Of a stretch of DNA of 64,000 bases, positions 31,453 through 58,167 are shown piece by piece (positions within the stretch are counted from its first letter, which is position 1; every line of letters begins with the position of its first letter). The stretch is from positions 101,638 through 165,637 of the IMG/VR virus record IMGVR_UViG_3300023110_001773; one strand, written 5' to 3'. A program made the translations under genes and the position numbers. This stretch comes from a virus. A model generated the notes under the pieces. It did no database searches. It was not told the DNA's origin and saw only the letters and a list, made by a program, of their open reading frames with translations.

Positions 31453-32624
31453 GACCTAGTATTACCATAATGGACTACAATATGGGATTTAGTTTTTGAT
31501 TCATACGTTCTCCAAGGATCAAAAATAACTACGCCTGGGACTAATTCTTCTTCATTAATTTCATCGGACTCATGCACTCTTACAATAACATCTGCTTGAT
31601 CTATGTCTTTGGTTACATTAGTATTAAATTTTTCGACATAATGTTGCACCAAAAGACTATAACTACCATTTGTATAATCTACATGTGGTTTGTAGGAATC
31701 GGAAGTGAAATAAACTTCATACCCGTGTTCACAAATTGCTCTAGCCATATTTTCTGCTTGAACATCTCTGGCTTTCATAATCTCTGCAAAAAGATCATAT
31801 CCCAAGGATAGATTGTCAGACATGAATCTAAGTGCAATGTTGTCTCTGGGATGACATGCACCACCATCACCCATCCCAGGCTTCATGTACCCAGGCCCCA
31901 TAATCCTCTGAGTACTATCTCTCAAAGCATTTGCAACAACATCCACATCAATATTACCCTGTTGTTCTGCAACATCTTGTATCATGTTTACCAAACCGAT
32001 CTTCGCACTGATAAACGTATTGTAAAATACTTTGATGCACTCGCACTCATCCCATGTACCTATTACATATCGTGGGTCGTTTTCCATAATAGACTCATAA
32101 AACTCTTTGAGTTCTTTTGCATCACCAGTTTCAGTACCATCTTCAGTGCCGATCATAACCATCTCTGGATTCACCATATCCCATGCAACAGTTCCCATGG
32201 CAATAAGGTAGGGATTATATACAAATCGAGTGTTTGTGACTAGAGGTACAAATTCTCTGCGTACAGTGCCAGGCAAAACAGTACTGATAAGAACAAGCAA
32301 CTGATCCTTGTTCATATGATTATTTGCTTCTTCTATAACATGTTGAACAATCCCATATCCAAAGTCTTTTGGTGGTAAGTGATATGTTGGAGTCTCTCCG
32401 CCATATTCTGGATCGTGTGGGGTGGGGACAGCGACAAAAACAATATCTCTATCTGCAACAGTATCTTTGATCGTTGGTCGCATATCAATATCGGTGTCAA
32501 TCGTTGCAACATCATAAGCTACAACATCGTGTCCTTTCTCTGCAATCACCTCTCCACAGGGTTGACCCAGTTTGCCAAATCCAATAAAACCAATTTTCAT
32601 AATGTTTTCAAATCCTCTATCCAT
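31440..32624 (-). CDS. UDP-glucose/GDP-mannose dehydrogenase family protein
   Basis: GFGKLG, VAVPTP, STVLPGT, GGACHPRD; probable start MKIGFIG at 32600. Confidence 0.9.
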   Translation of the reverse strand: MDRGFENIMKIGFIGFGKLGQPCGEVIAEKGHDVVAYDVATIDTDIDMRPTIKDTVADRDIVFVAVPTPHDPEYGGETPTYHLPPKDFGYGIVQHVIEEANNHMNKDQLLVLISTVLPGTVRREFVPLVTNTRFVYNPYLIAMGTVAWDMVNPEMVMIGTEDGTETGDAKELKEFYESIMENDPRYVIGTWDECECIKVFYNTFISAKIGLVNMIQDVAEQQGNIDVDVVANALRDSTQRIMGPGYMKPGMGDGGACHPRDNIALRFMSDNLSLGYDLFAEIMKARDVQAENMARAICEHGYEVYFTSDSYKPHVDYTNGSYSLLVQHYVEKFNTNVTKDIDQADVIVRVHESDEINEEELVPGVVIFDPWRTYESKTKSHIVVHYGNTRSCKK

Positions 32625-33628
32625 TGTTTGTTTTTTGTGATTAATTCTATCATTAGATTACGATTATTTTCCAACCTATTATATATGGAAGAATAAATTC
32701 TGTCAAGTTCTTCTATGGGAGTAAGGCACACCTTTTTTAAATCCTTTACCAAGTTGTCAGTTCTTTTATCTCTATCAACATCAAGTCCAACATTGGGAAA
32801 CAAATCTTCAAAAGTATCGAATCCAAATTCTCTTAGTTTTGGATATAAGTTTCTATCCCCCAAAGCAAGAAAAGGTCTTAATCCTATAATTGGTTTAAAA
32901 ATCTTTTCGCTCAGAAAAACATCTGTATGAGCAGCACTTTCCGTAACAACATTGACAAAGTGGGAGTTCCAATGCGTTGGGTCTCCCAGAGAAATTATAT
33001 CATTTGCTATATGTTTGTCAGATAAAACTTCGTGGTCATAAAACATATTTACCAGTTCTGGTGGTCTATTTTCTTCAAGAATAATTGGGTGTTCAAAATT
33101 GTATCCGGCGTCTCTTTGTAATACAGATATGTTTCCTTTTTTATAAATTGTTTCTTGTTCAAAAATCTTATTTAACAAGTGCCTTCTATGATCATTGGGT
33201 TTGTTATTTAAACACATAAAATGATATTGTAAATTTGGTTTTGATGTGTAGCATTCATCAAAAAAATATTTTTTGTAAAAATCTATAAATTCAACCCAAA
33301 AACTGAAATAGTGTCCCTCAGAAGTGTTTCCAATATGAGTGCAATCAAATCTATATTGTAGAAATATATGAGCAGCAGTACACACTGGTTCGCAGTGTGT
33401 ATTCATCCAATCCATACCAGAATATAGAAATGCTCTTTTTTTGTCTGTAGTAATTTGCCAATCAACAAATTTTTGAAATGTTATTGGATCATTTATCCAA
33501 GTGGTATCAATAAGACAAACATCATCTGGTATAAGTTCAAGAATCCTTTTGAAAAAAACCCTGTCAAAATCTGTAATCTGGTTGTTGCCAGATTTTATTG
33601 ATGGCCCATTCGTAAAATAATCAGTCAT
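32597..33628 (-). CDS. Putative glycosyltransferase-like protein (paralog 1)
   Basis: CLNNKPNDHR and VVTES..FLSEKIFKPIIGLRPF..GFDTF motifs. Confidence 0.5.
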   Translation of the reverse strand: MTDYFTNGPSIKSGNNQITDFDRVFFKRILELIPDDVCLIDTTWINDPITFQKFVDWQITTDKKRAFLYSGMDWMNTHCEPVCTAAHIFLQYRFDCTHIGNTSEGHYFSFWVEFIDFYKKYFFDECYTSKPNLQYHFMCLNNKPNDHRRHLLNKIFEQETIYKKGNISVLQRDAGYNFEHPIILEENRPPELVNMFYDHEVLSDKHIANDIISLGDPTHWNSHFVNVVTESAAHTDVFLSEKIFKPIIGLRPFLALGDRNLYPKLREFGFDTFEDLFPNVGLDVDRDKRTDNLVKDLKKVCLTPIEELDRIYSSIYNRLENNRNLMIELITKNKQWIEDLKTL

Positions 33629-35330
33629 ATAATCTTAGTTCATTAAAAATATTTCTATGTTCAGCGATACGAACAGAAGAACAGTTTTTAAAATGTTCGT
33701 AGTTTCTATAGAGTTTAGGTCTGACCGACTCGTACAGTCTAAATTTTTCTGCATGGGTTAGTGTTTTCCATCTTTCTAAATTTCTAATAATATGTGACAT
33801 TCTTTTCTTCGGGTTTAAAATAGAATCATACGTCTCATCAAACATTTCTGGAAATGTTTCGTACCCCATATCTCTGAGGTGTTCTAATGTGCCTGGTGAA
33901 CCCACTACCATGAATGGAATTCTATAAGCAAAACACTTATAAATCTTCTCTGTAATCTGCAAACAATTACTATCATCTAAACCGAAAAGAGTTTCACTAA
34001 CTAAAGCAAAAAATGATTTTCTGTAGTGATCCAACGTGATCCTTCTATCATCTTTGGTCACCGAGTCCGTATTGATGTCAATAGATATAATATCATTTTT
34101 ATGCCAAAATTTATAGAAAAATTCTCGTTGTGTTTCAAATTCCATGATCGTGTTGGGCGCAGTCCACTCGTTAGAAACCCAATCTTCTATAGTATCTTCC
34201 CTGTATTCAGATTTAGTATAAAAATATTTGAACTTCCAATAAAGTTCTGGATGTTCTTCTGGGTTCTCGTCTCTGGCTAAAAAACTAATGTAAGAGTTAT
34301 TATTGTCATATCCCAATCTAAATAATTCAGAGACAATTACTGGTCTATGGGGTCTTACTCTTGCATTCAGGCAGATCAAATCTCTTTCTTTTTCCGTGGA
34401 TGGGGGGACATCTGCCATAACTTCATCAAGTCTGATATCTCTATATTCGTCTGCCCATTGCAATCTAGGCCAGCCGGGTTTATTGGTATCTTGTTTAGAT
34501 TTTTTAACTTGTTCTGGTAAATCTTCAAACTCGATGTAAGCATCTCGATGTTTGGAACAATGATAATCACCAAAACTTTCAACAGATTTGTACTTATCAA
34601 AGTTGTGGGAAGGATTGAATCTCCAACAAGTTCTGGAAACATATTGTTTGAAGTAATGTTCATGGAAAAAATCAATGCCAAAACATTTTTTAAATTCAAA
34701 TTCTATTTCTGGATTGGCCCTCTTCCACCTGTCAAAGTTTTTTTGTACATTAAAATCACCGTAGATAAAATAATGTACTCCTCCACTTAGGTCATAATCT
34801 ACAATTTTTTTAACAAGTCTAGTCATCCAAGGATTATCGTTGACAACATCTCTCAAAGATGCCATCCCAAATCCCTCGTGCGGAAACCAGAAAACCATTG
34901 CCATCTTTCTTTCTCTAACCATCTGCAAGGCATGATGATTACATCCACAGAAAATGTCTTCTACGTTCACATGTACTTGTACAATTTCTATGAAATAAAG
35001 GTTGTCTCTGTCAACGTAAGTATCATTCCAATCAGAAATATCTTTCATTTCAAATGGAATGCCCATTCTTTCATAAAGGTCAACAATATCAGTAGGGCCG
35101 AAACAAACTTTATTATGTGGGTCTGATGAACTATTTTTTTGTGGATATTCGCCTTTAGCCAACTCCCTTATAGGGGGCAGTTTATCAAACCAGAGGATAG
35201 GGGGTTGGTTAGAAATTTTTCTGGGATTAGTTTTAAGTACAGATATCTCTTTTCTAAGAGATTGTACTTCATCCAGAACTTTTTGTAATAAAGTCTGGAT
35301 ATTCCCAAGGTCTGTTTCTGATGCCGCCAT
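33621..35330 (-). CDS. Putative glycosyltransferase-like protein (paralog 2)
   Basis: CLNARVRPHR and LVSET..ITEKIYK..PFMVVG..GYETF..DETYD motifs. Confidence 0.5.
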   Translation of the reverse strand: MAASETDLGNIQTLLQKVLDEVQSLRKEISVLKTNPRKISNQPPILWFDKLPPIRELAKGEYPQKNSSSDPHNKVCFGPTDIVDLYERMGIPFEMKDISDWNDTYVDRDNLYFIEIVQVHVNVEDIFCGCNHHALQMVRERKMAMVFWFPHEGFGMASLRDVVNDNPWMTRLVKKIVDYDLSGGVHYFIYGDFNVQKNFDRWKRANPEIEFEFKKCFGIDFFHEHYFKQYVSRTCWRFNPSHNFDKYKSVESFGDYHCSKHRDAYIEFEDLPEQVKKSKQDTNKPGWPRLQWADEYRDIRLDEVMADVPPSTEKERDLICLNARVRPHRPVIVSELFRLGYDNNNSYISFLARDENPEEHPELYWKFKYFYTKSEYREDTIEDWVSNEWTAPNTIMEFETQREFFYKFWHKNDIISIDINTDSVTKDDRRITLDHYRKSFFALVSETLFGLDDSNCLQITEKIYKCFAYRIPFMVVGSPGTLEHLRDMGYETFPEMFDETYDSILNPKKRMSHIIRNLERWKTLTHAEKFRLYESVRPKLYRNYEHFKNCSSVRIAEHRNIFNELRLYD

Positions 35331-36435
35331 CTACTAAAATCTCATAAAATTCTGGAAAAGTTTTTTTGTAGTCTTCTTCTCTTACTGAGTCAAGTCTTTC
35401 TGTCACCGCAATGAAACCCAAGTCTAACTTATCGTGTTCGGCCTCTTGCATCATAAAGTTTATAATGGCATCGGTGTTGGGAATATTTATAATTTTCTCA
35501 CGAACTTTATCTTTGCTGGAATCTGGCATATTACGAACACAATATTGTCTGGGGAAGTGCAACAAATTGAAATAAATGTTATTACCATCAAATGTTTCTA
35601 CAAAATCATTCAAATAATATACGTTAAACAAACTAACAGTATGACATATTTGTATGTTGAGAAATTTATGGGATTTGAAATGATTGAAGTTTTCCCAAAC
35701 CTCATCCCACACAGCACCACTGCGAATATACTCAAATTGTTCTCCAACGCCATCTATACTGAACATGATTTCACAGTGTTTAAATTCTTTCCACAGATCA
35801 AATATTTCTTTGGGGGGTCTAATTGTTCCGTTTGTATTGTAATGTATGGCAATGTTCTTGGCATAACCAGAATCAACTGCATGTCGCAACAGATCAAAAT
35901 GTTGATCTATCATAAAAGGTTCTCCACCAGTAAAATCCATATGTTCTACTGTCGGCATAATTTTATCAAGTTCTTCCCAGACGCCAGGATTCTTTTTCAC
36001 CCACAAAGCATCTTTGTTATCAAGCACTCTTCCGTACATTTTAATTTCATCTGCCTTCCAACTGGAAGAGTTTACACTTCCACAAGATCGACATTTTAGA
36101 TTACACAATGTACCAAACTTTAAATCAAGATAAACTGGGGGAGTTATATCTTTTCCTATTTTGTCTACATGATTAGAAAACCTGTCGATATCTTGCAATC
36201 TTTTTGACTTGTATCCAGCATCTTCGTTCTGCCAACACATAGCACAACCAGAAGGCATTTTTCCATCAAGAAATTCTTGTCGCAGATTATTGTACTTTTC
36301 GCCACTCCAAATGTCCATCAAGGATTCTTCTTTGAGATTCCCCATTGGTTCACCACGATATAAACAACATGGTTTGGCAGTACCTTCTGTAGTAAACTCG
36401 GTGTGTATCCAAGGCAGTAAACAAATTTTATCCAC
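35269..36435 (-). CDS. N-terminal twitch-domain radical SAM protein 1
   Basis: CLLPWIH..PCC..C..C, then CNLKCRSC and TGGEP. Confidence 0.9.
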   Translation of the reverse strand: MDKICLLPWIHTEFTTEGTAKPCCLYRGEPMGNLKEESLMDIWSGEKYNNLRQEFLDGKMPSGCAMCWQNEDAGYKSKRLQDIDRFSNHVDKIGKDITPPVYLDLKFGTLCNLKCRSCGSVNSSSWKADEIKMYGRVLDNKDALWVKKNPGVWEELDKIMPTVEHMDFTGGEPFMIDQHFDLLRHAVDSGYAKNIAIHYNTNGTIRPPKEIFDLWKEFKHCEIMFSIDGVGEQFEYIRSGAVWDEVWENFNHFKSHKFLNIQICHTVSLFNVYYLNDFVETFDGNNIYFNLLHFPRQYCVRNMPDSSKDKVREKIINIPNTDAIINFMMQEAEHDKLDLGFIAVTERLDSVREEDYKKTFPEFYEILVDGGIRNRPWEYPDFITKSSG

Positions 36436-37672
36436 GCAAAACCTCTAGTTCTGGGAAGGTCTTAAAAAAGTCTTCGTTTCTAATAATATCTAAGGTTTCC
36501 ATTTTATGTAAAAATGGTTTTATCAAATCTTGTCTATCTTCTGAATTCATGAATGTCATCAGAGATTCAAAATCATTTGCAACAGCATTATGGCCATATT
36601 TCTTCAACATGTCAACGTGTATTCTATATTGAGTTGTCAACATTTTCTTGGTTTCTATCGGAAGAATTTGTAAACTTAGGAGAGGGGGTTCCATAACAGG
36701 ATTCACATGAAACTTATCTAAACCAGATATAAATTCTTGATCAAATAAGGCTTGATGAAACTTGATGCAATGAAATGCATTTTGAACACTGACCGTACAG
36801 TTTACATAAAAGTCAACATGAGGACAAAGTTCTTTCATCTTTTCTCTGTTCTGAACAAACTGATCCCACTTGAAACCACTGCGAATGAGTTCACCCTGTT
36901 CTTTCATTCCGTCAATACTAGCACCAACACTGACGTTTTTGAATTTCGGCCAATATTCAAGAACATGCAAGTCCTTGTATCGCATCTCACTGAAATTCGT
37001 GTTGTATCTAATCTGCACATCGTGTCTACCCATCTCATCAAGTTTTTTCAAGATGCGATAGTGTTCTTCCATGATCAATGGTTCACCACCAGCAAAGTAA
37101 ATGATTTCTACATCTTCAAAGTAAGGTTGTATGTCTTCCCACAAATCAAAGTGTACTTCTCTGGGAATATCATCTGGCAAAAATTTTCTGCCAGTTTCCA
37201 TCTCTGCAATTTTCTTAGTATCACTGTACCATCCCGTACTCAACTGAGGCCCACAACTTCTGCACTTAAAATTGCAAACGTTTGAAAACCGAAAGTCCCA
37301 GTAAGACAATCTAATCTCGTCAACGGAACCATCATCGTTGGTAGATTCTATCAAATCACTATGTTGATTAAAATCTCTGTTTGAACTCATTCTAAAAGAG
37401 TGAGCGCCGCAGTCTTCTTGTATGTAACACCTCTGGCAACTTTCGGGTCTTTTGTTATCCAACATCTCAAGACGAATTTTTTTCATCTTGTCATCGTTGA
37501 ATATTTCTTGAAGACTTTTTTCGTTTAGATTGCCTACACGGTGTTCCATTGGAGAAATGCAACATGGGTATACTGACCCGTTTGGCCATGTATGCAAATG
37601 TATCCAAGGTATAATACAAAGATTGTCGTTCTTTATCTTTGTCTTTGTGGGATTATTTTTTCCTTTACTCAT
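36428..37672 (-). CDS. N-terminal twitch-domain radical SAM protein 2
   Basis: CIIPWIH..PCC..CQRC; CNFKCRSC; AGGEP. Confidence 0.9.
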   Translation of the reverse strand: MSKGKNNPTKTKIKNDNLCIIPWIHLHTWPNGSVYPCCISPMEHRVGNLNEKSLQEIFNDDKMKKIRLEMLDNKRPESCQRCYIQEDCGAHSFRMSSNRDFNQHSDLIESTNDDGSVDEIRLSYWDFRFSNVCNFKCRSCGPQLSTGWYSDTKKIAEMETGRKFLPDDIPREVHFDLWEDIQPYFEDVEIIYFAGGEPLIMEEHYRILKKLDEMGRHDVQIRYNTNFSEMRYKDLHVLEYWPKFKNVSVGASIDGMKEQGELIRSGFKWDQFVQNREKMKELCPHVDFYVNCTVSVQNAFHCIKFHQALFDQEFISGLDKFHVNPVMEPPLLSLQILPIETKKMLTTQYRIHVDMLKKYGHNAVANDFESLMTFMNSEDRQDLIKPFLHKMETLDIIRNEDFFKTFPELEVLRG

Positions 37673-38933
37673 AATCTTTTATCAATTCATAAAGTTCTGG
37701 AAAAGTTTTTTCAAAGGACTGTTTTCTCAACTCGTCCATTGATCTGGTTTTTTCAAAAAACATTTTCATGTTTCCTGATACTCCGCCGCCCCATCTATTT
37801 TCACCATCGACACTGAGATAATTTTTTATATCGTTGTATCCCTGATATCCTTCAAGTCTCTGCAAAACAACTTTTTGAACTTCTTTTGGCAAAACCCTGC
37901 AATCAAAGTGTTCTGGATCATTCACAAAGTTATGACTAATATGCAAAGATGAATCTTCTAGGGGGTGACCCCTCAGAGGAACCTTATCCTTGAAAAATTC
38001 ATAGAACTCTGGTACATAGTAGACATTATATGTAGATACCGTCTGCAAGATATTGTAATTAATGTTTTTATATCTAGCAGTCATACTCATCATCCAAGTG
38101 ACAAACTCTAAAACCTTTTCCCACTTGGTAAATGTTCTGATATATTCATTCCTGTCGCCAACATCATCAATGGACAACATAAACTGAACGTGTTTAAAAT
38201 TCTTCCAAATTTCTTCGTAGTCCTTGTTCACCACGGTGCAATTTGTCGAATAAACTATTTCAACATTTTTGGCCAATCCCATATCAACCAGAGTTGACAG
38301 AAAATCCATATGTTTATCAACAATGAATGGTTCGCCACCATTGATATACAATACTTTGAGTTTGTCGCATCTTGTTATCAGTTTATCCCAAAAGCCCTGA
38401 TCCAAAGGCCAGTTGAAATTTTTCTGACTCATCATCTCTGGTAGTGCCGGACGTTCTGGGTAAATTACATCCCAATCTTTCATCCACCGAGAGCTAGAAT
38501 ATGGATTGCATGTACGACACTGTACATTGCAGTGGTTACCCAAACGCAATTCAACAAATTCATAATTGACTTCTTTAAGTGTTCCATCTTCGTTTGTGAT
38601 ACTCTTAGCGTATTCAACATCCATAGGGACTCTACGACTTTCATAGTATCGTTTACTCTTGACACCGACACTCTCCAAATCCCAGCACTTTCTACACTCA
38701 ACGGGTTGTTCTCCGTTTAACATTTTTTTCCTGACTTTGCTAAAACTATCAGAATTGGTAATCTTAGAAAAGTCATCAACATTCTGTAGTGTGATCAGTT
38801 TTCTTCCATGTCCATAGTCGTTGAAAGCTTGAGAAATGCCATCCTGTTGTTCTGATTCGCAACATAGGGTGCAAACACCGTGTGGGTGTGTTGCTAAGTG
38901 ATTCCACGGAAGTGGACAAAAAGTTTTACTCAC
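37665..38933 (-). CDS. N-terminal twitch-domain radical SAM protein 3
   Basis: CPLPWNH..LCC..CRKC; CNVQCRTC; NGGEP. Confidence 0.9.
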   Translation of the reverse strand: MSKTFCPLPWNHLATHPHGVCTLCCESEQQDGISQAFNDYGHGRKLITLQNVDDFSKITNSDSFSKVRKKMLNGEQPVECRKCWDLESVGVKSKRYYESRRVPMDVEYAKSITNEDGTLKEVNYEFVELRLGNHCNVQCRTCNPYSSSRWMKDWDVIYPERPALPEMMSQKNFNWPLDQGFWDKLITRCDKLKVLYINGGEPFIVDKHMDFLSTLVDMGLAKNVEIVYSTNCTVVNKDYEEIWKNFKHVQFMLSIDDVGDRNEYIRTFTKWEKVLEFVTWMMSMTARYKNINYNILQTVSTYNVYYVPEFYEFFKDKVPLRGHPLEDSSLHISHNFVNDPEHFDCRVLPKEVQKVVLQRLEGYQGYNDIKNYLSVDGENRWGGGVSGNMKMFFEKTRSMDELRKQSFEKTFPELYELIKDYE

Positions 38934-39451
38934 AGGAACATACCTTTTACATCAATATTAACATTTACATCTGGTTGATCTAAATCCAATCTTCTAGTAT
39001 ATTTTTCCCCGTCATTGCGATCCTCCAACCAAACAAGTTTTCCACCAAATTCTTTATATATTTTTGACTGCCACTCCAGACACTTCAGTATTACTTTAAA
39101 AGAGTATTCCAATGAAACTTGCATATCCGCATCCCAATCTGGTTCTGTAAGCTTTTGCCACGGATGCCAATCATTTGAAATTCCACAATAGGCATGTGAC
39201 TTAATTTGATTGGAAACATCCTCTCTCAGAGTGTAGTATATTTCATCAGCATTTTCTAGATAATCTTTTTTAAATTGTTCGTAATATCTATCATAATGAA
39301 ACTGATCTGGAATTACTTTATATACGTCCAACTCTGGTGTGGGTGGTCTATAATCACAAACGGTGTTGTGCAACCATTCATCACCATCTCCTCCGAGGAG
39401 AAGAGAAAAGGTAGTAGAACCAGTTCTATAATTTGCAATTATTAATTTCAT
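38930..39451 (-). CDS. Putative sulfotransferase-like protein
   Basis: N-terminal RTGST resembles the PAPS-binding loop; later R....Q..S as in Stf0-type enzymes. Confidence 0.5.
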   Translation of the reverse strand: MKLIIANYRTGSTTFSLLLGGDGDEWLHNTVCDYRPPTPELDVYKVIPDQFHYDRYYEQFKKDYLENADEIYYTLREDVSNQIKSHAYCGISNDWHPWQKLTEPDWDADMQVSLEYSFKVILKCLEWQSKIYKEFGGKLVWLEDRNDGEKYTRRLDLDQPDVNVNIDVKGMFL

Positions 39452-40749
39452 ATATTATCCCACCAATCCACTGCATCACCATACAGCGTATCTCTAAATG
39501 TAATACAACTATTTCTTTTTTCGTCTAGAAATTCTTGAAAGGATTTGCCACGTTTTAACCCATCACAATATGTTTCTGGCCATTGTTCATCAAATGACTG
39601 TCTATTTATTAGGTTGTTCAAAGAGTCAGTATACACACGATTCTTCCAAGTGGTGTATGGTGCTAAATCCGAGATGAGACTTTCACAAAGTGGTTTTGAA
39701 ATATGTTTTGGCAAACACATCGGACTCATTACAACAGATGGGTCAAATGCAAAAGTAAACTTGAAGTATGACTTTACATTCAGTCTGAATGCTTCATGAA
39801 ACAAATCCTTCAGATAGAACAGGCCGGGCGTTGTCAACGTTACATCAAACACCATTGCATCATCACCAAACTGGTCGATCAAAAACAATCCCTCTTGAAA
39901 GTTTTCGATCCACTCATTCCACTTCAACCCGTCTCTGATATATTCCCCAACGGTATACGCTCCGTCAATACTTGCACAAATGTTTACTTTCTTAAAGTGC
40001 GGCAGTAAGTCATAGAGGTGAGACCCGTTAAATGATGTTCTACTCAAATTCGTATTATATCTTACCGTAACATTTTTTGAGTGACCACTATCAACAAGTT
40101 GTTGCATGACAGTCCAGTGACGTTCCCACATTAGAGGTTCCCCACCAACCCAATAAATCTCTTCTATCGTTTCGTTGTCAACAGCACGTTGCAATTCTTC
40201 TTCTAAAACTTCTTTTTGAAAATTGCCGATTTGTTTTCTCGTATTGGGTTCCAACCAAGGTTCTTCTGTTATATCAATGAGGTTGAGTTTCTTTTTCTCA
40301 GCTTCCCAACTGCTGGACAATTGTTCGCCACACATCCTACACTTAAAGTTGCATAGATTAGATATTCTATAGTCATATGAAACTGGATGGTCACTATAGT
40401 AACCATCTGGCGATGTATTGGATATTATACTTTCCACTTTATGCGGAAACAAGGTTTCCGTGAAATATTTTTTATATGTGTGCAAGTTCAATATCTGATC
40501 ATTACAAACTTCGCATTGGGGCAAACGTTCGCCGGCCAACATTCTTTTACGAATGTCTTTCATGTAATCGCTGTTCCAGTGTTCTTCTAATGATACTGGT
40601 TCAAACTTACCCTTTGCGGTTCCGCTATCAATATACTGTTTTTGAAATGAGGCCTCTTCTCTGCTAGCACAACAAAGTCTACGTTCTCCTTGCGGGGAGA
40701 CGTATGTGTGAGTCCACGGTGCAGTACAGAAGTAGGGATTATCTTTCAA
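39448..40749 (-). CDS. N-terminal twitch-domain radical SAM protein 4
   Basis: CTAPWTH..LCC..CEVC; CNFKCRMC; VGGEP. Confidence 0.9.
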   Translation of the reverse strand: MKDNPYFCTAPWTHTYVSPQGERRLCCASREEASFQKQYIDSGTAKGKFEPVSLEEHWNSDYMKDIRKRMLAGERLPQCEVCNDQILNLHTYKKYFTETLFPHKVESIISNTSPDGYYSDHPVSYDYRISNLCNFKCRMCGEQLSSSWEAEKKKLNLIDITEEPWLEPNTRKQIGNFQKEVLEEELQRAVDNETIEEIYWVGGEPLMWERHWTVMQQLVDSGHSKNVTVRYNTNLSRTSFNGSHLYDLLPHFKKVNICASIDGAYTVGEYIRDGLKWNEWIENFQEGLFLIDQFGDDAMVFDVTLTTPGLFYLKDLFHEAFRLNVKSYFKFTFAFDPSVVMSPMCLPKHISKPLCESLISDLAPYTTWKNRVYTDSLNNLINRQSFDEQWPETYCDGLKRGKSFQEFLDEKRNSCITFRDTLYGDAVDWWDNI

Positions 40750-41740
40750 GAATCAAACCCTCTGGAATTTCCATTTCTTTAAATTTTTCATGTATCAAAA
40801 AAACCGATTCAATCATAGTTGGCCATGGTCTGGGGATGTGTTTCGGAAATGGAGGAGGCCCAGTATCAGTTTTTGCAAAATTGAAAGCCCATTCAAAATT
40901 TTTCAATCTTATTTCTCTAGTAATATCCGATAATTCAGAAACTTCATATGTATTAATCAAATTATCAAGTTGTTCTATTATCATTTCACCACGTTTTTCG
41001 TTATCAATAACCCTATCGAAAGAGTAATCAATTTCTGGGTGTGGCGTATATCCACACATAAACAACCTTTGGTAAGTTTTTGGTGCTGCATAAATCAAAG
41101 GAATCTTTCCATATACAATTGGCCTAAAAGTTTTCTCTGTTAAAAAAATTACATTTTCATCTGTTTCGGTAACAAAATCAATCAAAACTCTCGGATAAAA
41201 TTCTGGGCACAATTCCCTCTCTGAATACCACTTAACAATTTTATAAACGTTTAATTTTTCTCCAGCATGATACTTACAATACTCATTAATAATAGGAGAT
41301 ATTTTTTTCCACAAAACATCTCTGTGGGGCCTTCTCCTAGCCCACATAGTAATAAATGAAATATCATGGTCAGAATTTAAATTTTTTTCTATGTCTTTCC
41401 AAAAAATCTCTTCAGAAATCTGGTAGTCTTTTCCTTGATGTAACATATAGTACCAAAAAACATACATCCACCACCAGTAATATACTCTGGCGTCAATCAG
41501 AGAAAATACTTTACATGGCATTTTGTTTACATCTAGGAATTTTATCTCGTTGTCATTTGGGTCTCTATAAGCTATTTCAATCTCTTGTGGCATATAAATA
41601 TTTACAATACTATCACGAGCTTCTCCAGTAGCCAACTTATATCCATTGATTAGGGTTTGTCCGTATACTGGGTACATAACCCCGTCAATGAACATACAAT
41701 ATCCTGCTGGATCAGCAGTACCCTCACCTTCAAACATCAT
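40739..41740 (-). CDS. Putative glycosyltransferase-like protein (paralog 3)
   Basis: RRPHR and FVTET..FLTEKTFRPI..IDYSFD motifs. Confidence 0.45.
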   Translation of the reverse strand: MMFEGEGTADPAGYCMFIDGVMYPVYGQTLINGYKLATGEARDSIVNIYMPQEIEIAYRDPNDNEIKFLDVNKMPCKVFSLIDARVYYWWWMYVFWYYMLHQGKDYQISEEIFWKDIEKNLNSDHDISFITMWARRRPHRDVLWKKISPIINEYCKYHAGEKLNVYKIVKWYSERELCPEFYPRVLIDFVTETDENVIFLTEKTFRPIVYGKIPLIYAAPKTYQRLFMCGYTPHPEIDYSFDRVIDNEKRGEMIIEQLDNLINTYEVSELSDITREIRLKNFEWAFNFAKTDTGPPPFPKHIPRPWPTMIESVFLIHEKFKEMEIPEGLILER

Positions 41741-42272
41741 AAAATCCGCTGACTTGTAAAGTATATTTGTTTGTCAACCCAGCGTTGCAACTTAGGTGGA
41801 GTGGTTCGCTGTCCCACAAATACCCCTCACCAGCATTCCAATGAGTACAACTAACCCAGTCATCCCCATGTTTGTACTGAAGAAAATGTCCTACTTGCCA
41901 GTCTTCTAAGAATATATTTGCCCTGACTTTTGGTCTATTATCATCTGGATAGAGATTTTTAAATTTGAAAAAAGTATCCCTGTGTAAAGTAACAACATTT
42001 CCAGGCGGTTGAAGAATTGCACTGATTGTTTTCACATCAATGTTTAAAAGACTTCCTATCTCCTTATAATCAATGTCATCTTCCGTCCACCAAATTTGTT
42101 GTATTCTTGTATTGTCTTCATGGTAAGATTCTGGAAATCCATCTCCAATAGTTTCATGAATGTCCGTCTGTTCTCTTTTTTGATAAGAAATACAACTGCC
42201 AAAATGTTGAGAGAAGTCACCATTTAAAAACTTATTCAGATCATAGTTGAAATTAATTTTTTGAAATATCAT
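41730..42272 (-). CDS. 2OG-Fe(II) oxygenase-like cupin
   Basis: QPPG..LHRD (HxD), distal H..N.G...KYTLQV. Confidence 0.7.
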   Translation of the reverse strand: MIFQKINFNYDLNKFLNGDFSQHFGSCISYQKREQTDIHETIGDGFPESYHEDNTRIQQIWWTEDDIDYKEIGSLLNIDVKTISAILQPPGNVVTLHRDTFFKFKNLYPDDNRPKVRANIFLEDWQVGHFLQYKHGDDWVSCTHWNAGEGYLWDSEPLHLSCNAGLTNKYTLQVSGFYDV

Positions 42273-42273
42273 T

Positions 42274-43767
42274 TTAGTACTCTGCTAATGGATCGTCTAT
42301 GTTTTTATTGTCTGGTTTCAACACCCACCCCTCTTCCTCTGCAATCTTTTTCAGATCGGGGTCATCGTCATATTGTCTTGTACTGTCACCATCAACCAAC
42401 TTTACGGCAATCGTCTCTGTATCTGGAATAGTATCAACCCAGTCAGTAAGAATTTCTGGAAATACATTGAGTGACTTATTTCGTCTCTCATCATACTGTT
42501 TGAAGAAAGTTTTAAAGTCTCTCCACAGAGTCATCTTGTCGCTGGTGCGTCTGTGTGGTGCATCAACTGTAACAAGATAGTCAATCAGTCTTTCGATGCT
42601 TGCCTTCTCGAAATCGTGCCACAGTGGTTGCTCTTTGACTGCGTTATACCAATCTTCCAACTGTTCCCGCAGATAGTCTTTTATATGATCTGGGAGTGCG
42701 AGCGGTGATTGAAAACTTGGAAAACGTAACAAGTTCACACTAACAACAGGTGCTTTTGTGCCAGTATGTAACTTCATCTCATAGACATCATCAAGGAACT
42801 CGGTGATACTAAACAAGCACAGACTATTGATGGTCATCATAATATTCAGTCCCTTCAGATTACAGTTGTCCATAATCTTGTACATGTTTTTCTTCCATGT
42901 ATCGTAGTGCAGTCCGTCACGAATGTAATCCGCTTGTAGTCCAGTCGCTTCACAACTAGTATACAAATGAAAGTCATTGACACCTTGACTTCGTTCAATT
43001 AGTCGGTCAATCAAACTATCTTTTGCCATGAGATTTGAGTTAATAGCAAAACGCATCTTGCTGGGATTATCATTGAACCAGTCGAACAACTTCCACACTT
43101 GGTCAGACATCAGTGGTTCACCACCAGTAATACGCAACTCTTCTAGACTGTCAGATAATCCGTCTTCCCACCAATCCCAAAAAGCCTTAATGTATGGATT
43201 GTCTTCATCTTTTGCATATGGTTCTGCCCATGCGCCGTCTTGTTGAAACGCAGCTGCACCATCCGACACCATGTTCTGATACGCACCCTTCTTGGTGATA
43301 TCTTTTGCCCATGTTGTAGAGAAAGATGCATTGCAATAAGAACAAGCCAACTGACAAGTACGGTCAAATGCAATCTCAAATGTTTTCAGATCAACACTTT
43401 CATTGTGATCCATTTCATATGCTTTCTGTAAGTCTGCATTTGAATAGATGATAGATTTAAACACACGATCAGACACGGCATCTTTGCCCATGTCTTCCAC
43501 TTTCCAGCAGTACTCACATTCTCGTGGTCGTTCTCCTCTCTGCATCATCTTACGCATCGCCTTCTTGTGGCGAGTGTTATGAATAGCAGATGGGTCTACA
43601 GCAATCTCTTCTAATGGAATCTTATGTGCTGGAGGGTGATGACAAGAAGCGGTAGTACCACTGCCTAGCCAAGTTGTAGCATTATACCACTTAGCACCAC
43701 AGAAACTTTCAGATTTTGTATCAAGAATATCTTTTCGATACTTAATCAAGTCAAATTCTTTACTCAT
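42274..43767 (-). CDS. N-terminal twitch-domain radical SAM protein 5 (CHH subtype)
   Basis: FCGAKW..SCHHP..CEYCW; CQLACSYC; TGGEP. Confidence 0.88.
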   Translation of the reverse strand: MSKEFDLIKYRKDILDTKSESFCGAKWYNATTWLGSGTTASCHHPPAHKIPLEEIAVDPSAIHNTRHKKAMRKMMQRGERPRECEYCWKVEDMGKDAVSDRVFKSIIYSNADLQKAYEMDHNESVDLKTFEIAFDRTCQLACSYCNASFSTTWAKDITKKGAYQNMVSDGAAAFQQDGAWAEPYAKDEDNPYIKAFWDWWEDGLSDSLEELRITGGEPLMSDQVWKLFDWFNDNPSKMRFAINSNLMAKDSLIDRLIERSQGVNDFHLYTSCEATGLQADYIRDGLHYDTWKKNMYKIMDNCNLKGLNIMMTINSLCLFSITEFLDDVYEMKLHTGTKAPVVSVNLLRFPSFQSPLALPDHIKDYLREQLEDWYNAVKEQPLWHDFEKASIERLIDYLVTVDAPHRRTSDKMTLWRDFKTFFKQYDERRNKSLNVFPEILTDWVDTIPDTETIAVKLVDGDSTRQYDDDPDLKKIAEEEGWVLKPDNKNIDDPLAEY

Positions 43768-45139
43768 CCCAATCCTCTAACAAATGTGCATACTGTGGAA
43801 AAGTGTTTCTAAAATCTTTCTGTCTTCTCTTGTCATACTCGGTTATGTACTTGACAAAATCACCTCTATGTTTATCAGCGACTTCGGTAATTCTAAGATA
43901 CTCACAGAATCTTTGTATTTGGTCAAACTCTTCAAGATAAATTCTGGCAAACTTATCTGGCGAGTAATACTTCAACCAAGACTCCGCCAAGTTTTCAATA
44001 TCACTAGCATAAGATATTCTCGTTATCTTATCAAGTAAAGTGCATTGCAAGTGAGGGGGAAATCTAAGATAATTCACACTTAGGGGTACTCTGTTATGTG
44101 CAAGGTCTCTATTGAATTCCACTCTGAGTTTCATAATGTCTTCGATGAAGTTACAAAACGTGGGCAGACTGAGAATGTTGAGTGTTGTCATGATTGCAAC
44201 ATTGGCATCAGTCTCATTCAAAACTCGTTGTACGTTTGCATACCAGTATCCATAATCCAACCCATCTCTGGCATACTCTGCCTGTCTACCCGTTGCCTCA
44301 CAACTTGTGTAAATTTCAATTTGTTTTACCTTGTCCTTCACCTTGTTCACAGAATCAATAAGTTTCTGTATGAGTCGAGGATCAGTTCCCAAATTACTAT
44401 TGATTGCAATAGACAGTTCTGGTTGGGCGTTATCGTAAATATAGTCCAACACCTTCCAGACATCTTTACTCATGGTGGGTTCGCCACCAGTGATTCGGAA
44501 AACTTTTAGATGCGGAAGTGCTTCTGGAAACCAATCCCAGAAAGCATCAACATATGGATTGGGATCAGAGTGTTTGTAAGGAAACTTTTCTGTCTCTCTC
44601 AAATAGTCTAAATTGTGAGAACCAAACTGCACTGGATACTCACCATTAGACTCAATGTCTTTCATCCACGTTGAGGATATCTCTGGTGAACAATAAGCGC
44701 AGGCAAAGTTACATGCGTTACTAAAAGACACCTCAAGGTAAGTCGGGTACACATCTTCCGTGGGATCACTGGTTGCAATGACATCAACCTTGTCCCAAGC
44801 CCACCAATCAGAAGTCTTGTAATGACGATCAGAAAAATGATCCTTGTCCTGATCTTCTATTCTCCAACAATAGTCACACTCACGAGGCCTCTCTCCATTA
44901 ATCATTTTTATTCTTTGCTGTTTTTTATAATTGCTATTGTGCAAAGCAGCAGGATTGATTTTAATCTCTGCAACAGGGATTTTGTGTGGAGATGGATGGT
45001 GACAAGAATGATTGTATCCGTTCTGCAACATCAAAGTAGTTTGCAACCACTTAGCAGAACAAAAAGACGGACTAATCTCGTTGATCTTAATTCGTTTTTC
45101 TTTTAGTACTTCAATCCAGTGTTCATTGGTTTGTGTCAT
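43760..45139 (-). CDS. N-terminal twitch-domain radical SAM protein 6 (CHH subtype)
   Basis: FCSAKW..SCHHP..CDYCW; CNFACAYC; TGGEP. Confidence 0.88.
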   Translation of the reverse strand: MTQTNEHWIEVLKEKRIKINEISPSFCSAKWLQTTLMLQNGYNHSCHHPSPHKIPVAEIKINPAALHNSNYKKQQRIKMINGERPRECDYCWRIEDQDKDHFSDRHYKTSDWWAWDKVDVIATSDPTEDVYPTYLEVSFSNACNFACAYCSPEISSTWMKDIESNGEYPVQFGSHNLDYLRETEKFPYKHSDPNPYVDAFWDWFPEALPHLKVFRITGGEPTMSKDVWKVLDYIYDNAQPELSIAINSNLGTDPRLIQKLIDSVNKVKDKVKQIEIYTSCEATGRQAEYARDGLDYGYWYANVQRVLNETDANVAIMTTLNILSLPTFCNFIEDIMKLRVEFNRDLAHNRVPLSVNYLRFPPHLQCTLLDKITRISYASDIENLAESWLKYYSPDKFARIYLEEFDQIQRFCEYLRITEVADKHRGDFVKYITEYDKRRQKDFRNTFPQYAHLLEDWDE

Positions 45140-46443
45140 GATATCTCATCATAAAAATATTGTAATTCTGGAAACGCATCATGCCAACTAACATTTCTGC
45201 GTTTATCGTGTTCATCGACAAAAAGTTTAAAATCTTTTCTATGAGTATTTAGGTCTTCTTCAACAAACCTATTTTTTTCTACCCATTTAACAACAGTTTT
45301 AAATTTTTGCAACTCACCAGAATTAAATTTTAAATTGTCGCCGTCATCCGTATTCTGTTCCATGAATTTTTCAGCATCTTTCAACATATTCATCATATTG
45401 TCGTCAAGTATTAAAGCAGAAAGATGTTTGGGATTTGTCATATAAGGAGTATCAAGTTTTACATCGCCAAGTCTTTTTAATTCCAAAACATATCCAAGAA
45501 ATTCTTTGAACTTAGGAATACTCAGGAGATTAAATGTTACCATTAATCCAACTGGAATACTAGCATTCAAAATTTGAACCAGATTGATTTCAAATGTTTT
45601 CCAATTCAGTCCGTGGCGAATCCATTCTGCCTGTTCACCCAAAGTATCAACACTGGCATAAATCTTGGGTGACTTCATCTCGGACATGGTTTTTATTATT
45701 CTATCAACCCGTCTCGTAGAAACAGATAGGTTGCTGTTGACATGAAATGCAATATTTTCTCCGTTGGGATGATTGCGAATAAACTTTGCCAGTTTGAATG
45801 TATGTTCGCTCAACAAAGGTTCGCCGCCAGTAATCCTAATTACTTGTAAGTGCATGACTGCTTCTCTTATCCACTTCCAAAACTTGTCATACATTTCACT
45901 GTTTTCTGGCCACAAGTTTTCTCTTCCATGAGAAACATACTGGGAATTGTTTTCTGGGTGTATCAAAGGATACTCGCCAAATTTTTTGATTTCTTCGTGC
46001 AATGAAGAACTGTTCTGCGTGGAACAATAACTGCACTTCATCTGACACTTGTTACTAAAACTCATCTCCAAGTATTTTGGATATACTGGTTCGTCCCACT
46101 GCATCCTAGCAGTAGTCTCAATAATATCTGATTGCATCTCCGTGTATATTGGAGTTAATGCAATCCTCGGACTAATAGAACCACTGTCTTCAACATTCCA
46201 ACAATAAAAACACTCCACTGGGCGACCACCTTCCAGCATTGCTTTTCTTTGTCGCATCTTTTGTTCTGTGTTGTGGAAGTCTTCTTCCAAATTTATGTGT
46301 CTTTGTGGACAATGGAAACAAGAATGACTTTGAGCAGAACTGAGATGCATTTCCAAATGATGCCATTTGAGCACACAAAATCCAGGCCCGACTTTATCGT
46401 ACCTGTCCTGCAACTCTTTGTAATATTCAACGGGAGTTTTCAT
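45136..46443 (-). CDS. N-terminal twitch-domain radical SAM protein 7
   Basis: FCVLKW..SCFHC..CFYCW; CQMKCSYC; TGGEP. Confidence 0.88.
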   Translation of the reverse strand: MKTPVEYYKELQDRYDKVGPGFCVLKWHHLEMHLSSAQSHSCFHCPQRHINLEEDFHNTEQKMRQRKAMLEGGRPVECFYCWNVEDSGSISPRIALTPIYTEMQSDIIETTARMQWDEPVYPKYLEMSFSNKCQMKCSYCSTQNSSSLHEEIKKFGEYPLIHPENNSQYVSHGRENLWPENSEMYDKFWKWIREAVMHLQVIRITGGEPLLSEHTFKLAKFIRNHPNGENIAFHVNSNLSVSTRRVDRIIKTMSEMKSPKIYASVDTLGEQAEWIRHGLNWKTFEINLVQILNASIPVGLMVTFNLLSIPKFKEFLGYVLELKRLGDVKLDTPYMTNPKHLSALILDDNMMNMLKDAEKFMEQNTDDGDNLKFNSGELQKFKTVVKWVEKNRFVEEDLNTHRKDFKLFVDEHDKRRNVSWHDAFPELQYFYDEIS

Positions 46444-47173
46444 TGTCTTCTAAAATTTGGGTGAACATGTTTTTATCAGAAATCAAATTTGCAAAATGTT
46501 TTGTGTCTTTTGGTAGACACTTGCCCCCAAATCCACGTTTACCATCTGGGCCGGGGACATCCCAATGTGTCCAACCAAATTCATTCTCAACCACATACAA
46601 TTTTTTTATATTATTGTAATCGGCACCATTTTTTTCACAAACATCATAAACATGATTTGCAAACATGACTCTAGCTGCAAGTAAAGAATTTCTACTCATC
46701 TTATATATCGCAGCTTCTCTGGGTGAGACACGATGAGCGGTTTTCATGAATGGCAAAGCGTACTGAAGGGCAAAAAAATCTTCTTCATCACTAGCACCAA
46801 TTATCACCGATTTGCGATGATCCATTGTATCCTCTTTCCAGTGATTTTCTCTCAAAAACTCCGGCATGTAAATCCAATCATCTTCCAATTGATCTGGGCC
46901 TAGAGTGCTTCTGACAACAATCTTACCACCACGGTTTGATTTGCTAGTTTTACTCCTAACTTCCCTAATAGCATCCTTGACTACAGATTTTGACAAACCC
47001 TTTTTGGTAAAATCATTAATAGGAGTTGGAACACAAATAAAAGTATATTGAACATCAGACCAAGATTTAATTTCATAACCCAAAGCTGGATCGTGTATCA
47101 AACACTCATGTTCACTAAAAAGCAATTCCGTTGATTTACCAACAAAACCATAACCAACTATAGCAATTTTCAT
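46427..47173 (-). CDS. Short UDP-glucose dehydrogenase-like protein (no C-terminal UDP-binding domain)
   Basis: GYGFVG, ICVPTP, PEFLRE, GFGGKCLPKD; ends shortly after the catalytic Cys. Confidence 0.85.
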   Translation of the reverse strand: MKIAIVGYGFVGKSTELLFSEHECLIHDPALGYEIKSWSDVQYTFICVPTPINDFTKKGLSKSVVKDAIREVRSKTSKSNRGGKIVVRSTLGPDQLEDDWIYMPEFLRENHWKEDTMDHRKSVIIGASDEEDFFALQYALPFMKTAHRVSPREAAIYKMSRNSLLAARVMFANHVYDVCEKNGADYNNIKKLYVVENEFGWTHWDVPGPDGKRGFGGKCLPKDTKHFANLISDKNMFTQILEDNENSR

Positions 47174-47763
47174 TCTTTGTAACCTGTCACCGTAAATCTT
47201 TTATATGTTGTATTGTTTGGGCCCGGCAGTTCCATTTCCTCTGCGTGTGTCACCGAACACTTGTTTCGCATAACAAAATCATCTAAATTATTAAAGGGTC
47301 TTATGTGTTCTGGTATGATTAAATTGTTGCCTTGCATGATAACAAAAGTACCGTCTGGAATATTGTTATACCAAGAATCAAAAGTTTCTTGATCAACGTG
47401 TTCCGTACTTGTATTGATAACAACATCTGGGTCTTTGTCGTAAGAAAAGTTTTTCATGTCGGCAGTAATAAAATTAACAAACTGACTAGAAAAATATTTG
47501 TTGCCGACTTCTTCACACTTTGCATCAACATCAATAGAGTTGACATCAGAGACAAACCTGTTATCTTCAATCATCTTTGCAAGGACGCCATACCACCCAC
47601 CGAAGATATAACATGGGCCGTGCAAGAATTCTGGGTAGAGTTCAATTACTCTTTCTTTGCTTTGTAATTGGGTATCCCAAAAACATTCTAGGAATCGTCT
47701 GTCGTCTGGGTTTTCTCTCATATAATTAAACCAAGAAGACATTGTATCAATAGAAAAAATCAA
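47170..47763 (-). CDS. Class I SAM-dependent methyltransferase-like protein
   Basis: FGGWYG..SIDVD..ADM..INTSTEH. Confidence 0.75.
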   Translation of the reverse strand: MIFSIDTMSSWFNYMRENPDDRRFLECFWDTQLQSKERVIELYPEFLHGPCYIFGGWYGVLAKMIEDNRFVSDVNSIDVDAKCEEVGNKYFSSQFVNFITADMKNFSYDKDPDVVINTSTEHVDQETFDSWYNNIPDGTFVIMQGNNLIIPEHIRPFNNLDDFVMRNKCSVTHAEEMELPGPNNTTYKRFTVTGYKE

Positions 47764-50784: not shown

Positions 50785-50806
50785 TCTCTCCCATTAAAGT
50801 AATTAT

Positions 50807-50840: not shown

Positions 50841-50865
50841 GTCTTTTCTTAGGGGAGAGAGTAAT

Positions 50866-58158: not shown

Positions 58159-58167
58159 AATAGACTC

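Follow-up and report, generated by a model that had tools for sequence, protein, structure and literature searches.

A divergent array of seven N-terminal-twitch radical SAM enzymes in a marine T4-like phage, and its possible role in glycan modification

Why should a phage keep seven radical S-adenosylmethionine (SAM) enzymes of a single family side by side? The question is raised by the last 64 kb of a 165,637-bp IMG/VR virus record (IMGVR_UViG_3300023110_001773), rated complete by CheckV; this whole stretch of 64,000 nucleotides is referred to here as the window. The source of the array is an uncultured marine T4-like phage, with baseplate genes of T4 type (gp5, gp6, gp7 and gp8-like) at 1929-15104, and a megablast search of the region against phage records gave no matches. 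The array lies in an island, a minus-strand block of about 27 genes which runs from 50784 down to 27937 and in which starts and stops mostly overlap. The answer favoured here, with roughly an even chance of being correct, is that each of the seven enzymes carries out its own radical C-H functionalisation on sugars belonging to a glycan or glycoconjugate.

The seven ORFs (open reading frames) are intact, and their positions on the minus strand are those given in a preliminary description made from the sequence alone:

35269-36435, minus strand: R1, N-terminal-twitch (N_Twi) radical SAM enzyme, subtype A; NF033640 score 372 bits; in a clade with type II co-orthologs (support 98)
36428-37672, minus strand: R2, N_Twi radical SAM enzyme, subtype A; NF033640 score 410 bits; 8-nt overlap with R1
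37665-38933, minus strand: R3, N_Twi radical SAM enzyme, subtype A; NF033640 score 352.1 bits
39448-40749, minus strand: R4, N_Twi radical SAM enzyme, subtype A; NF033640 score 322.9 bits; type II co-ortholog clade (support 100)
42274-43767, minus strand: R5, N_Twi radical SAM enzyme, subtype B (FCGAKW..SCHH); NF033640 score 298.9 bits; type II co-ortholog clade (support 99)
43760-45139, minus strand: R6, N_Twi radical SAM enzyme, subtype B (FCSAKW..SCHH); NF033640 score 320.8 bits
45136-46443, minus strand: R7, N_Twi radical SAM enzyme, subtype B (FCVLKW..SCFH); NF033640 score 294.9 bits; ortholog in the viral locus L001

Three ORFs of other kinds (38930-39451, 40739-41740 and 41730-42272) are interleaved among them. 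All seven proteins exceed the curated cut-off (170 bits) of NCBIfam NF033640 (N_Twi_rSAM), scoring 295-410 bits and covering profile positions ~1-398, and a profile search of the complete 165.6-kb genome (G000) found no further member, although the genome has 2 radical SAM genes outside the family. In R1-R4 a Pfam SPASM match at residues ~5-85 comes before the Radical_SAM match; PF04055 matches six of the seven paralogs, R5 giving a weak genome-level match only. The auxiliary domain, which is C-terminal in canonical twitch and SPASM enzymes, is N-terminal in all seven, so that the inverted architecture proposed earlier, and with it membership of a catalogued but uncharacterised N-terminal-twitch family, is borne out.

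Invariant positions in the alignment of the paralogs (A1, R1 numbering) are C5, W9, C24, C64, C67, C111, C115 and C118, together with GGEP, N202, S226 and R238. CxxxCxxC and GGEP are also invariant in a further alignment (A5), and the N-terminal Cys domain precedes both. Catalytic motifs are intact in every copy despite deep divergence, as had been stated, pairwise identity between R1 and the other paralogs being 22-32%. The motifs quoted at that stage, C..PW.H...CC in R1-R4 and FC..KW...SC(H/F)H in R5-R7, were read correctly, and the ending D..R..F...FP ascribed to most of the proteins is seen as a terminal D..R......FP(E/Q) in six of seven, R4 being divergent there. By analogy with characterised radical SAM enzymes, R1-R7 would be expected to bind [4Fe-4S] clusters and to cleave SAM.

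The array contains two subtypes. Their signatures were surveyed in 172 homologues from phage and bacterial loci, among them 128 of subtype A and 40 of subtype B. Subtype A (R1-R4) has F-C-x-x-P-W-x-H...G-x4-C-C, with Cys at the two positions of the CC pair in 128/128 and 127/128 sequences. The signature of subtype B (R5-R7) is F-C-x-A-K-W...L..G-x4-(S)C-H-H-P..H, in which S and C are each found in 40/40, followed by H (28) or Y (9), then H (37) and a further H (35). Chance origin of the two signatures is excluded, as judged from their persistence over the 172 homologues, and a maximum-likelihood tree of 66 phage sequences separates A from B with support of 100; the division into two subtypes is real.

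It had also been suggested that R5-R7 carry a different auxiliary site, possibly ligated by His. This is not needed. The canonical four-Cys pattern CX9-15GX4C...CX2C is present in both subtypes across the survey, as C-X12-G-X4-C(C)...CxxC in A and C-X13-G-X4-C(H)...CxxC in B, and a His ligand is not required because both keep the four Cys for one [4Fe-4S] cluster. What differs is the residue following the second ligand Cys, which is Cys in subtype A and His or Tyr in subtype B. In the radical SAM epimerases NeoN and EpeE the hydrogen atom is donated by a non-ligand Cys; the subtype residue could for this reason set the outcome of the reaction, acting, speculatively, as a hydrogen-atom donor or as an acid/base.

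How old are the paralogs, and do they differ in role? Searches with R2 and R6 gave 17 viral loci which, together with the window, make 18. Arrays of five to seven N_Twi genes occur in 10 of the 17, on nine distinct contigs, and other phage genomes rated complete have 6 and 11 members above the NF033640 cut-off. In the tree each window paralog falls in an ortholog clade of its own. Co-orthologs of R1, R2, R4, R5 and R6/7 are found in the arrays designated type II, the proteins being only 36-41% identical, while orthologs of R3 are confined to type I phages; the type I lineage seems to have gained R3 and R7 later. The ratio of nonsynonymous to synonymous substitution rates (dN/dS) against the L001 and L003 orthologs, where dS is unsaturated, is 0.02-0.09 (R4 ~0.07, R5 0.02-0.04, R6 0.035-0.049). 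In every pair the proportion of nonsynonymous differences (pN) lies far below that of synonymous ones (pS); for R7 the values are 0.152 and 0.745. Because they have their own ortholog clades and low dN/dS, the paralogs are, by these sequence measures, old, specialised and strongly constrained. The phylogeny, called for in the preliminary description, and the selection analysis reveal neither relaxed selection nor redundancy, and agree with the distinct, non-redundant roles envisaged in that description.

Members that adjoin in the array are in other genomes fused into single polypeptides. Seventy-nine relatives longer than R2 were retrieved, and an R2-like module followed directly by an R1-like one is found in 46 distinct 90%-identity clusters of ~803-852 residues; in the window the genes R2 and R1 adjoin and overlap in the same order. 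An exhaustive profile search gave further tandem fusions, namely R7/6-like with R5-like (P0200) and a three-module protein (P0201), and an R1-like module is joined to an R4-like one in P0206, these two adjoining in type II arrays. N_Twi modules are likewise joined to partners from the surrounding cassette, designated by the clusters (c-numbers) into which the ORFs of all 18 loci were grouped: to c3, a protein with a DXD motif, in 9-10 clusters; to the c1 GT-B (glycosyltransferase B-fold) family in P0189 (A4 profile, E 5.6e-14); and to c20, c44 and c38. In 11 clusters the partner is a radical SAM enzyme of a second type and in P0169 a B12-binding radical SAM enzyme; P0183 and P0193 are triple fusions of c3, N_Twi and the second-type radical SAM enzyme. 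Because they are fused elsewhere, neighbours would act as coupled units of one pathway, and the fusions are strong evidence for joint action of array neighbours on a single substrate in a fixed ratio. The earlier idea of a heteromeric complex stands in so far as it implies coupled action, which is supported by the recurrent fusions of neighbouring paralogs. An obligate heteromer is unlikely because single-copy loci exist in phages and bacteria: loci with a single subtype-B gene occur in phages (L006, L014), and 51 of the 78 bacterial loci having a match contain one N_Twi copy.

On what do these enzymes act? A sugar-bearing target is the most likely because the array sits inside an operon of sugar-handling genes. 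In the order of their coordinates, the neighbours of R1-R7 are:

24474-25334: NAD-dependent epimerase/dehydratase gene, near the island, outside the operon
28251-29102, minus strand: 283-aa SGNH/GDSL-like protein (GCSFTAGE), cluster c26; motif identified by eye
29090-30520, minus strand: NodU/CmcH/TobZ-type carbamoyltransferase (c4); PF16861 2.9e-49, PF02543 5.7e-34
30622-31452, minus strand: 276-aa SGNH/GDSL-like protein (GCSITTG); motif identified by eye
31440-32624, minus strand: UDP-glucose/GDP-mannose dehydrogenase family protein; PF03721 5e-17, PF00984 1.5e-15
32597-33628, minus strand: 343-aa c1 'TEK' GT-B glycosyltransferase-like protein; AlphaFold2 predicted local distance difference test (pLDDT) 71; atlas lead PF00852 at 0.80
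33621-35330, minus strand: 569-aa c1 'TEK' GT-B glycosyltransferase-like protein; alignment A4
38930-39451, minus strand: 173-aa ORF with P-loop-like N-terminus (RTGSTT), possibly sulfotransferase-like
40739-41740, minus strand: 333-aa 'TEK' GT-B family member, c1-like, aligning in A4; R..HR and VTET....LTEK
41730-42272, minus strand: 180-aa ORF, possibly cupin/2-oxoglutarate-oxygenase-like (HRD...H, by eye)
46427-47173, minus strand: short UDP-sugar dehydrogenase-like protein, 248 aa; PF00984 5.1e-13, PF03721 1.7e-10
47170-48377, minus strand: two ORFs, possibly methyltransferase-like (c8) and GNAT-like (c13) by eye; clusters conserved, no Pfam match
48329-49027, minus strand: Asp/Asn beta-hydroxylase-family (LpxO-type cupin) oxygenase; PF05118 1.5e-5
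49748-50458, minus strand: membrane di-iron fatty-acid-desaturase-family protein; PF00487 6.2e-13

The 173-aa ORF has no Pfam, PHROGs, NCBIfam or PDB-sequence match, and the 180-aa ORF none in Pfam, PHROGs or NCBIfam. The most constant partner of the radical SAM genes is c1, present in 14 of the 18 loci; the carbamoyltransferase is found in eight. Type I arrays are those of the window, L001-L005 and L008. In the direction of transcription they consist of c23, the desaturase-family gene, c18, the Asp/Asn-hydroxylase-family gene, c13, c8 and the short UDP-sugar-dehydrogenase-like gene, followed by six or seven radical SAM genes, two c1 genes, the UDP-sugar dehydrogenase and the carbamoyltransferase. 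Type II arrays begin with fibre-like genes and continue with c3, one radical SAM gene, c1, three or four radical SAM genes (one sometimes apart), c20 and the carbamoyltransferase. Type III has two proteins in which GT7 is fused to a ConA lectin, then radical SAM genes, c1, DUF6734, a radical SAM gene of another kind and an Asp/Asn hydroxylase. In L001, L002 and L004 a P-loop kinase and an HxGH nucleotidyltransferase, assigned by eye (L001 6733-7457), fill the slot taken in the window by the cupin-like ORF and c1 (40739-42272). Tailoring genes appear to be swapped around a constant radical SAM core, because the pair in L001 replaces these two window genes.

The three c1 members of the window (32597-33628, 33621-35330 and 40739-41740) share the A4 motifs R..HR and VTE(T/S)....(S/T)EK..KP. 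The model of the first (32597-33628) is predicted to have the two Rossmann domains of a GT-B fold; its VIA matches, with Z 9-10.8 over 240-273 residues, are almost all GT-B enzymes. Closest (Z 10-10.8, over ~250-270 residues) are T4 beta-glucosyltransferase (10.8), the glycosyltransferase of phage HY126 and H. pylori alpha1,3-fucosyltransferase (FucT), with T4 alpha-glucosyltransferase also among the best. With the alpha1,3-fucosyltransferases of family GT10 (H. pylori FucT, 2nzw; FUT9, 8d0o) c1 shares the fold at Z 9.1-10.2 but only 10-13% identity, with no PF00852 match and no PDB sequence match. The motif VTE(T/S)....(S/T)EK resembles the GT10 motif FxxxFENS....Y.TEK.

The surrounding genes point to a sugar context: the putative c1 glycosyltransferases, the carbamoyltransferase, two UDP-sugar dehydrogenase-like genes, the epimerase, the SGNH-like proteins and the hydroxylases. 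The GT7-ConA-lectin proteins of type III and the kinase/nucleotidyltransferase pair of L001 would also fit a glycan, and we infer that the substrate of R1-R7 is a sugar. From established radical SAM enzymology, the [4Fe-4S] cluster at CxxxCxxC in each enzyme would cleave SAM to a 5'-deoxyadenosyl radical, which would abstract hydrogen from a sugar C-H bond. The electron that completes the reaction would be accepted or donated by the four-Cys twitch cluster at the N-terminus. Possible outcomes are oxidation to a keto-sugar, epimerisation, dehydration or deoxygenation, and C-C bond formation, with each paralog taking a different sugar, position or step. R2 with R1, and R6/7 with R5, would operate as coupled units, as would adjoining transferases. 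The co-encoded transferases would build the glycan, its decoration falling to enzymes of carbamoyl, acyl and methyl type.

The operon would be read from a host-type promoter, and the clusters may be supplied by Fe-S assembly proteins of the phage:

50812-50840, minus strand: sigma-70-like promoter TTGACA-N18-TATATT, before the first island gene (50458-50784)
57631-58309 of the complete genome, outside the window: adjacent genes for IscU (185 bits) and an A-type Fe-S carrier (55.7 bits)

The elements of this promoter are conserved in L003, L004 and L005, where the sequences on either side have diverged. Fe-S assembly genes have been linked to radical SAM-rich T4-like marine phages (Nishimura et al. 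2017, PMC5332604). The same operon encodes oxygenases, namely the fatty-acid-desaturase-like and Asp/Asn beta-hydroxylase-like proteins, and it had been pointed out that oxygen-sensitive enzymes sit beside O2-dependent ones. They are indeed neighbours; the paradox falls away because aerobes operate radical SAM enzymes in their cytoplasm and the phage carries IscU and the A-type carrier.

Several points weigh against a sugar-modifying role. The family is uncharacterised throughout, and the fusions and gene neighbourhood speak of co-function, not chemistry. Structural comparison does not separate the candidate substrates. The AlphaFold model of R6 (pLDDT 93.5, predicted template modelling score 0.90) has radical SAM enzymes as its nearest solved folds, led by SkfB (Z 14.2), BlsE (13.9), MoaA (13.0), anSME (12.8) and SuiB (12.8) with CteB close behind, so that peptide-modifying and sugar- or nucleotide-modifying enzymes are tied. 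A profile of R2 orthologs (A2) gave no sequence-level match to PDB chains. The assignment of c1 to GT-B relies on a model of pLDDT 71 and middling Z scores; the three window members fail PF00852 and match no Pfam family at E<=0.01, c1 clusters have no PHROG or NCBIfam family, and the A4 profile found nothing significant among PDB sequences.

Most cassette partners are similarly without a Pfam, PHROG or NCBIfam family: ten island ORFs gave no match in PHROGs or NCBIfam. The assignment of c3 to GT-A is a weak one, based on the DXD motif and one Pfam match (E 0.0048), because a Pfam scan of 95 members of cassette families returned only ten families, mostly DUFs, two members matching Lipase_GDSL; the c3 profile (A6) found nothing significant among PDB sequences.

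The distribution of the family in bacteria adds to these points. R2 has 5,696 relatives at E<=1e-10 (90% clusters), and the family comprises ~7,000 clusters at 50% identity (E<=1e-30) whose names are no more than generic radical SAM labels. Bacterial members occur in Bacteroidota, Bdellovibrionota, Elusimicrobiota, Alphaproteobacteria, a Synechococcus and a Eubacterium. No partner is constant across the 78 bacterial loci, and single-copy homologues lack the cassette partners. The 148 neighbouring ORFs include 11 other radical SAM, 7 GDSL, and 4 each of GT1, PhyH, PqqD and UbiA; GDSL is the commonest neighbour that is not a radical SAM protein, and the PqqD-like proteins in four of the 148 also count against a sugar substrate. 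In bacterial genomes the combination of several radical SAM genes with c1 is confined to two contigs of one Haliscomenobacter metagenome-assembled genome, L021 and L023 (183 and 148 kb), each with five N_Twi genes, five c1-like genes, one c3-like gene and a carbamoyltransferase. With their type II gene order, these are probably phage or prophage DNA binned with that genome.

A more ambitious form of the sugar-modifying proposal is put forward only tentatively, and we hold it to be clearly less probable than the general one. It would see in marine and freshwater phages a 'radical glycan-editing' system, a way of tailoring polysaccharides or glycoproteins without described precedent. Its five to seven N-terminal-twitch radical SAM enzymes would form an invariable set, physically coupled with one another and with glycosyltransferases, and would each carry out a different C-H functionalisation on a growing glycan, subtypes A and B standing for two reaction outcomes. 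Some genomes have such components joined in transferase-like-radical SAM-radical SAM polypeptides; epimerisation, deoxygenation, oxidation and C-C or C-O cross-linking would be the possible reactions.

Of the alternatives, the one that survives best, while still unlikely, is that the array matures a protein or peptide, the radical SAM enzymes cross-linking, epimerising or oxidising its residues, as most SPASM/twitch enzymes do, and the sugar enzymes decorating the same molecule. Candidate targets would be proteins of the virion or fibre, small conserved ORFs (c23, for example) and the Asn/Thr-rich protein encoded across the divergent control region of the island:

50866-51945, plus strand: Asn/Thr-rich secreted, lipoprotein-like protein, 359 aa, behind TATAAATA; cluster c16
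51887-54106, plus strand: secreted 739-aa protein with tandem C-PGY-..AY-..QC-...PLYD repeat

The 359-aa protein has a lipobox-like signal peptide (LLVSC), ~200 residues of nearly pure Asn/Thr/Ser and a Cys-containing C-terminal domain. Its presence beside all type I arrays speaks for maturation, as do the Pfam SPASM matches on R1-R4, the place of type II arrays after fibre-like genes, the PqqD-like proteins among the bacterial neighbours (4 of 148 ORFs), and the top rank among R6 neighbours of SkfB, a maturase of ribosomally synthesised and post-translationally modified peptides (RiPPs), with anSME, SuiB and CteB near. However, the seven proteins and the Pfam-scanned island ORFs yielded neither a RiPP recognition element nor a PqqD domain, although a divergent recognition element could escape; no candidate precursor is common to arrays of types I, II and III, and the shared or fused partners are transferase-like and sugar-type enzymes.

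Timing also argues against the Asn/Thr-rich protein as target. In the 81-bp control region (50785-50865) the sigma-70-like promoter, which is of early type, overlaps a plus-strand T4-late TATAAATA at 50807-50814, before the operon of this protein; the motif is absent from the minus strand of the island promoter spacer. The island would be transcribed early by host polymerase and the secreted proteins late. Both secreted proteins are conserved beside type I arrays only. Once listed among the substrates to assay, the Asn/Thr-rich protein is not a general substrate because it is missing from type II and type III arrays; it is a possible acceptor in type I phages only.

A further TATAAATA lies at 35484-35491 on the minus strand, inside R1, and the 569-aa c1 gene follows ~150 nt downstream. 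This may be an internal late promoter or a chance occurrence, the window having 12 such sites where 4.4 are expected.

Less likely again is remodelling of the host envelope, in which the radical SAM enzymes would join the desaturase- and LpxO-family oxygenases in altering lipid or lipopolysaccharide (LPS), at the acyl chains or at the lipid-linked core, so as to block superinfection. The operon does hold FA_desaturase-family and Asp/Asn hydroxylase-family genes, LpxO being a member of the latter family. A host-type promoter suits host takeover, and GDGT-MAS, a radical SAM lipid enzyme, is among the structural neighbours of R6 (Z 11.3-11.6). Phage islands of this kind have also been read as modifying the O-chain (PMC7029224). 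Yet type II arrays lack both desaturase and hydroxylase and still have the core set of radical SAM genes, and Pfam scans detected no acyl-carrier, acyltransferase or lipid A gene in the island. If the glycan of LPS is the target, this explanation overlaps with sugar modification.

Very improbable is hypermodification of phage DNA, with an elaborate sugar placed on the bases as in the glucosyl-hydroxymethylcytosine of T4. It could appeal to the best VIA matches of the c1 model (T4 beta-glucosyltransferase, the HY126 glycosyltransferase and T4 alpha-glucosyltransferase) and to the early-type promoter; but the matches to DNA glucosyltransferases lie within one Z unit of those to many GT-B enzymes, and the complete genome has ThyX only, with no PF00303 (ThyA family) or PF01702 (TGT/DpdA). 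T4-type DNA glycosylation was rejected, no hydroxymethylase or base-exchange enzyme being found in the complete genome. Amplification of redundant or decaying copies for gene dosage, suggested by the tandem arrangement, is refuted by the divergence of the paralogs, their separate ortholog clades, purifying selection and intact catalytic Cys.

How does the array, read as sugar-modifying, compare with known systems? The seven proteins match the whole NF033640 profile and share its N-terminal Cys domain followed by the CxxxCxxC core; NF033640 is a catalogue entry, however, and its model distinguishes neither the two subtypes nor the phage set of five orthogroups. A full-text literature search found no paper for the accession or for 'N-terminal twitch', and nothing relevant on an N-terminal SPASM or radical SAM twitch together with polysaccharide or glycosyltransferase. 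With the twitch and SPASM enzymes BtrN, BlsE (7vob), anSME (4k36-39), SkfB (6efn) and MoaA (1tv7), whose structures are solved, the window proteins share a partial TIM-barrel core and an auxiliary four-Cys [4Fe-4S] motif. In these solved enzymes the auxiliary domain follows the core, whereas in the window proteins it precedes it, and the latter add a helical C-terminal region of ~100 residues ending D..R..FPE.

Closest in proposed chemistry are the sugar-tailoring radical SAM enzymes of aminoglycoside and nucleoside pathways (the dehydrogenase BtrN, the diol dehydratase AprD4 6fd2, the epimerase NeoN, the decarboxylase BlsE, and DesII 8hzv), in which a hydrogen atom is likewise abstracted from a sugar C-H. 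Transferases and a TobZ-type carbamoyltransferase are found alongside, and AprD4, BlsE and DesII are among the fold matches; BtrN is absent from the R6 structural match lists. The differences are that there is no orthology, that those pathways use one or two such enzymes against five to seven of a single family here, and that they belong to bacterial secondary metabolism, the window array to a phage operon.

Among phages, a host-recognition cluster with glycosyltransferases and 'radical SAM cassettes' is known from pelagimyophages (Zaragoza-Solas et al. 2020, PMC7029224). The cassettes of marine T4-like phages resemble the window array in their Fe-S assembly genes, glycosyltransferases and location in a variable host-recognition region, but the papers (PMC5332604, PMC7029224) count or mention genes and do not give family, subtypes, orthogroups or fusions. 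To these the present analysis adds natural fusions as evidence that modules are coupled, the case made from the four Cys against a His ligand, a bidirectional promoter that is conserved, the negative outcome on DNA modification, and cultured phages with members above the cut-off.

The family is large and abundant in ocean and lake phages, and the chemistry of any member would be the first for it. That ~9 kb are given to seven enzymes, with Fe-S assembly genes of the phage's own, implies a product important to the phage, which is probably a surface or virion glycan affecting host recognition or superinfection. Once worked out, the chemistry could add new radical carbohydrate reactions to enzymology and biocatalysis. 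The fusions and the fixed five-orthogroup set offer handles for choosing co-expressed pairs and transferases. Testing at the bench is possible because two cultured phages carry members above the cut-off: Ralstonia phage RsoM2USA, with two, one of them adjoining a c3 homologue (217357-219688), and Vibrio phage K566, also with two. Vibrio phage KVP40 has three copies, which score below the cut-off.

The two radical SAM genes outside the N_Twi family are:

20922-22427, minus strand: eighth radical SAM gene of the window, 501 aa; PF04055 52.7 bits; not N_Twi
28206-28721 of the complete genome, outside the window: ninth radical SAM gene

The 501-aa protein has no PHROG match and no PDB sequence match (phmmer against PDB). 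A 414-aa ORF at 55928-57172 on the minus strand weakly matches a homing-endonuclease PHROG at its N-terminus. The phage also encodes a transfer-messenger RNA (tmRNA) at 25917-26267 on the minus strand, for which ARAGORN gives the tag peptide ANDDVYALAA; it scores 102.9 bits with Rfam tmRNA_permuted (gathering 47) and 81.9 bits with beta_tmRNA, slightly below the gathering score of 84, and may be a hint to the host lineage.

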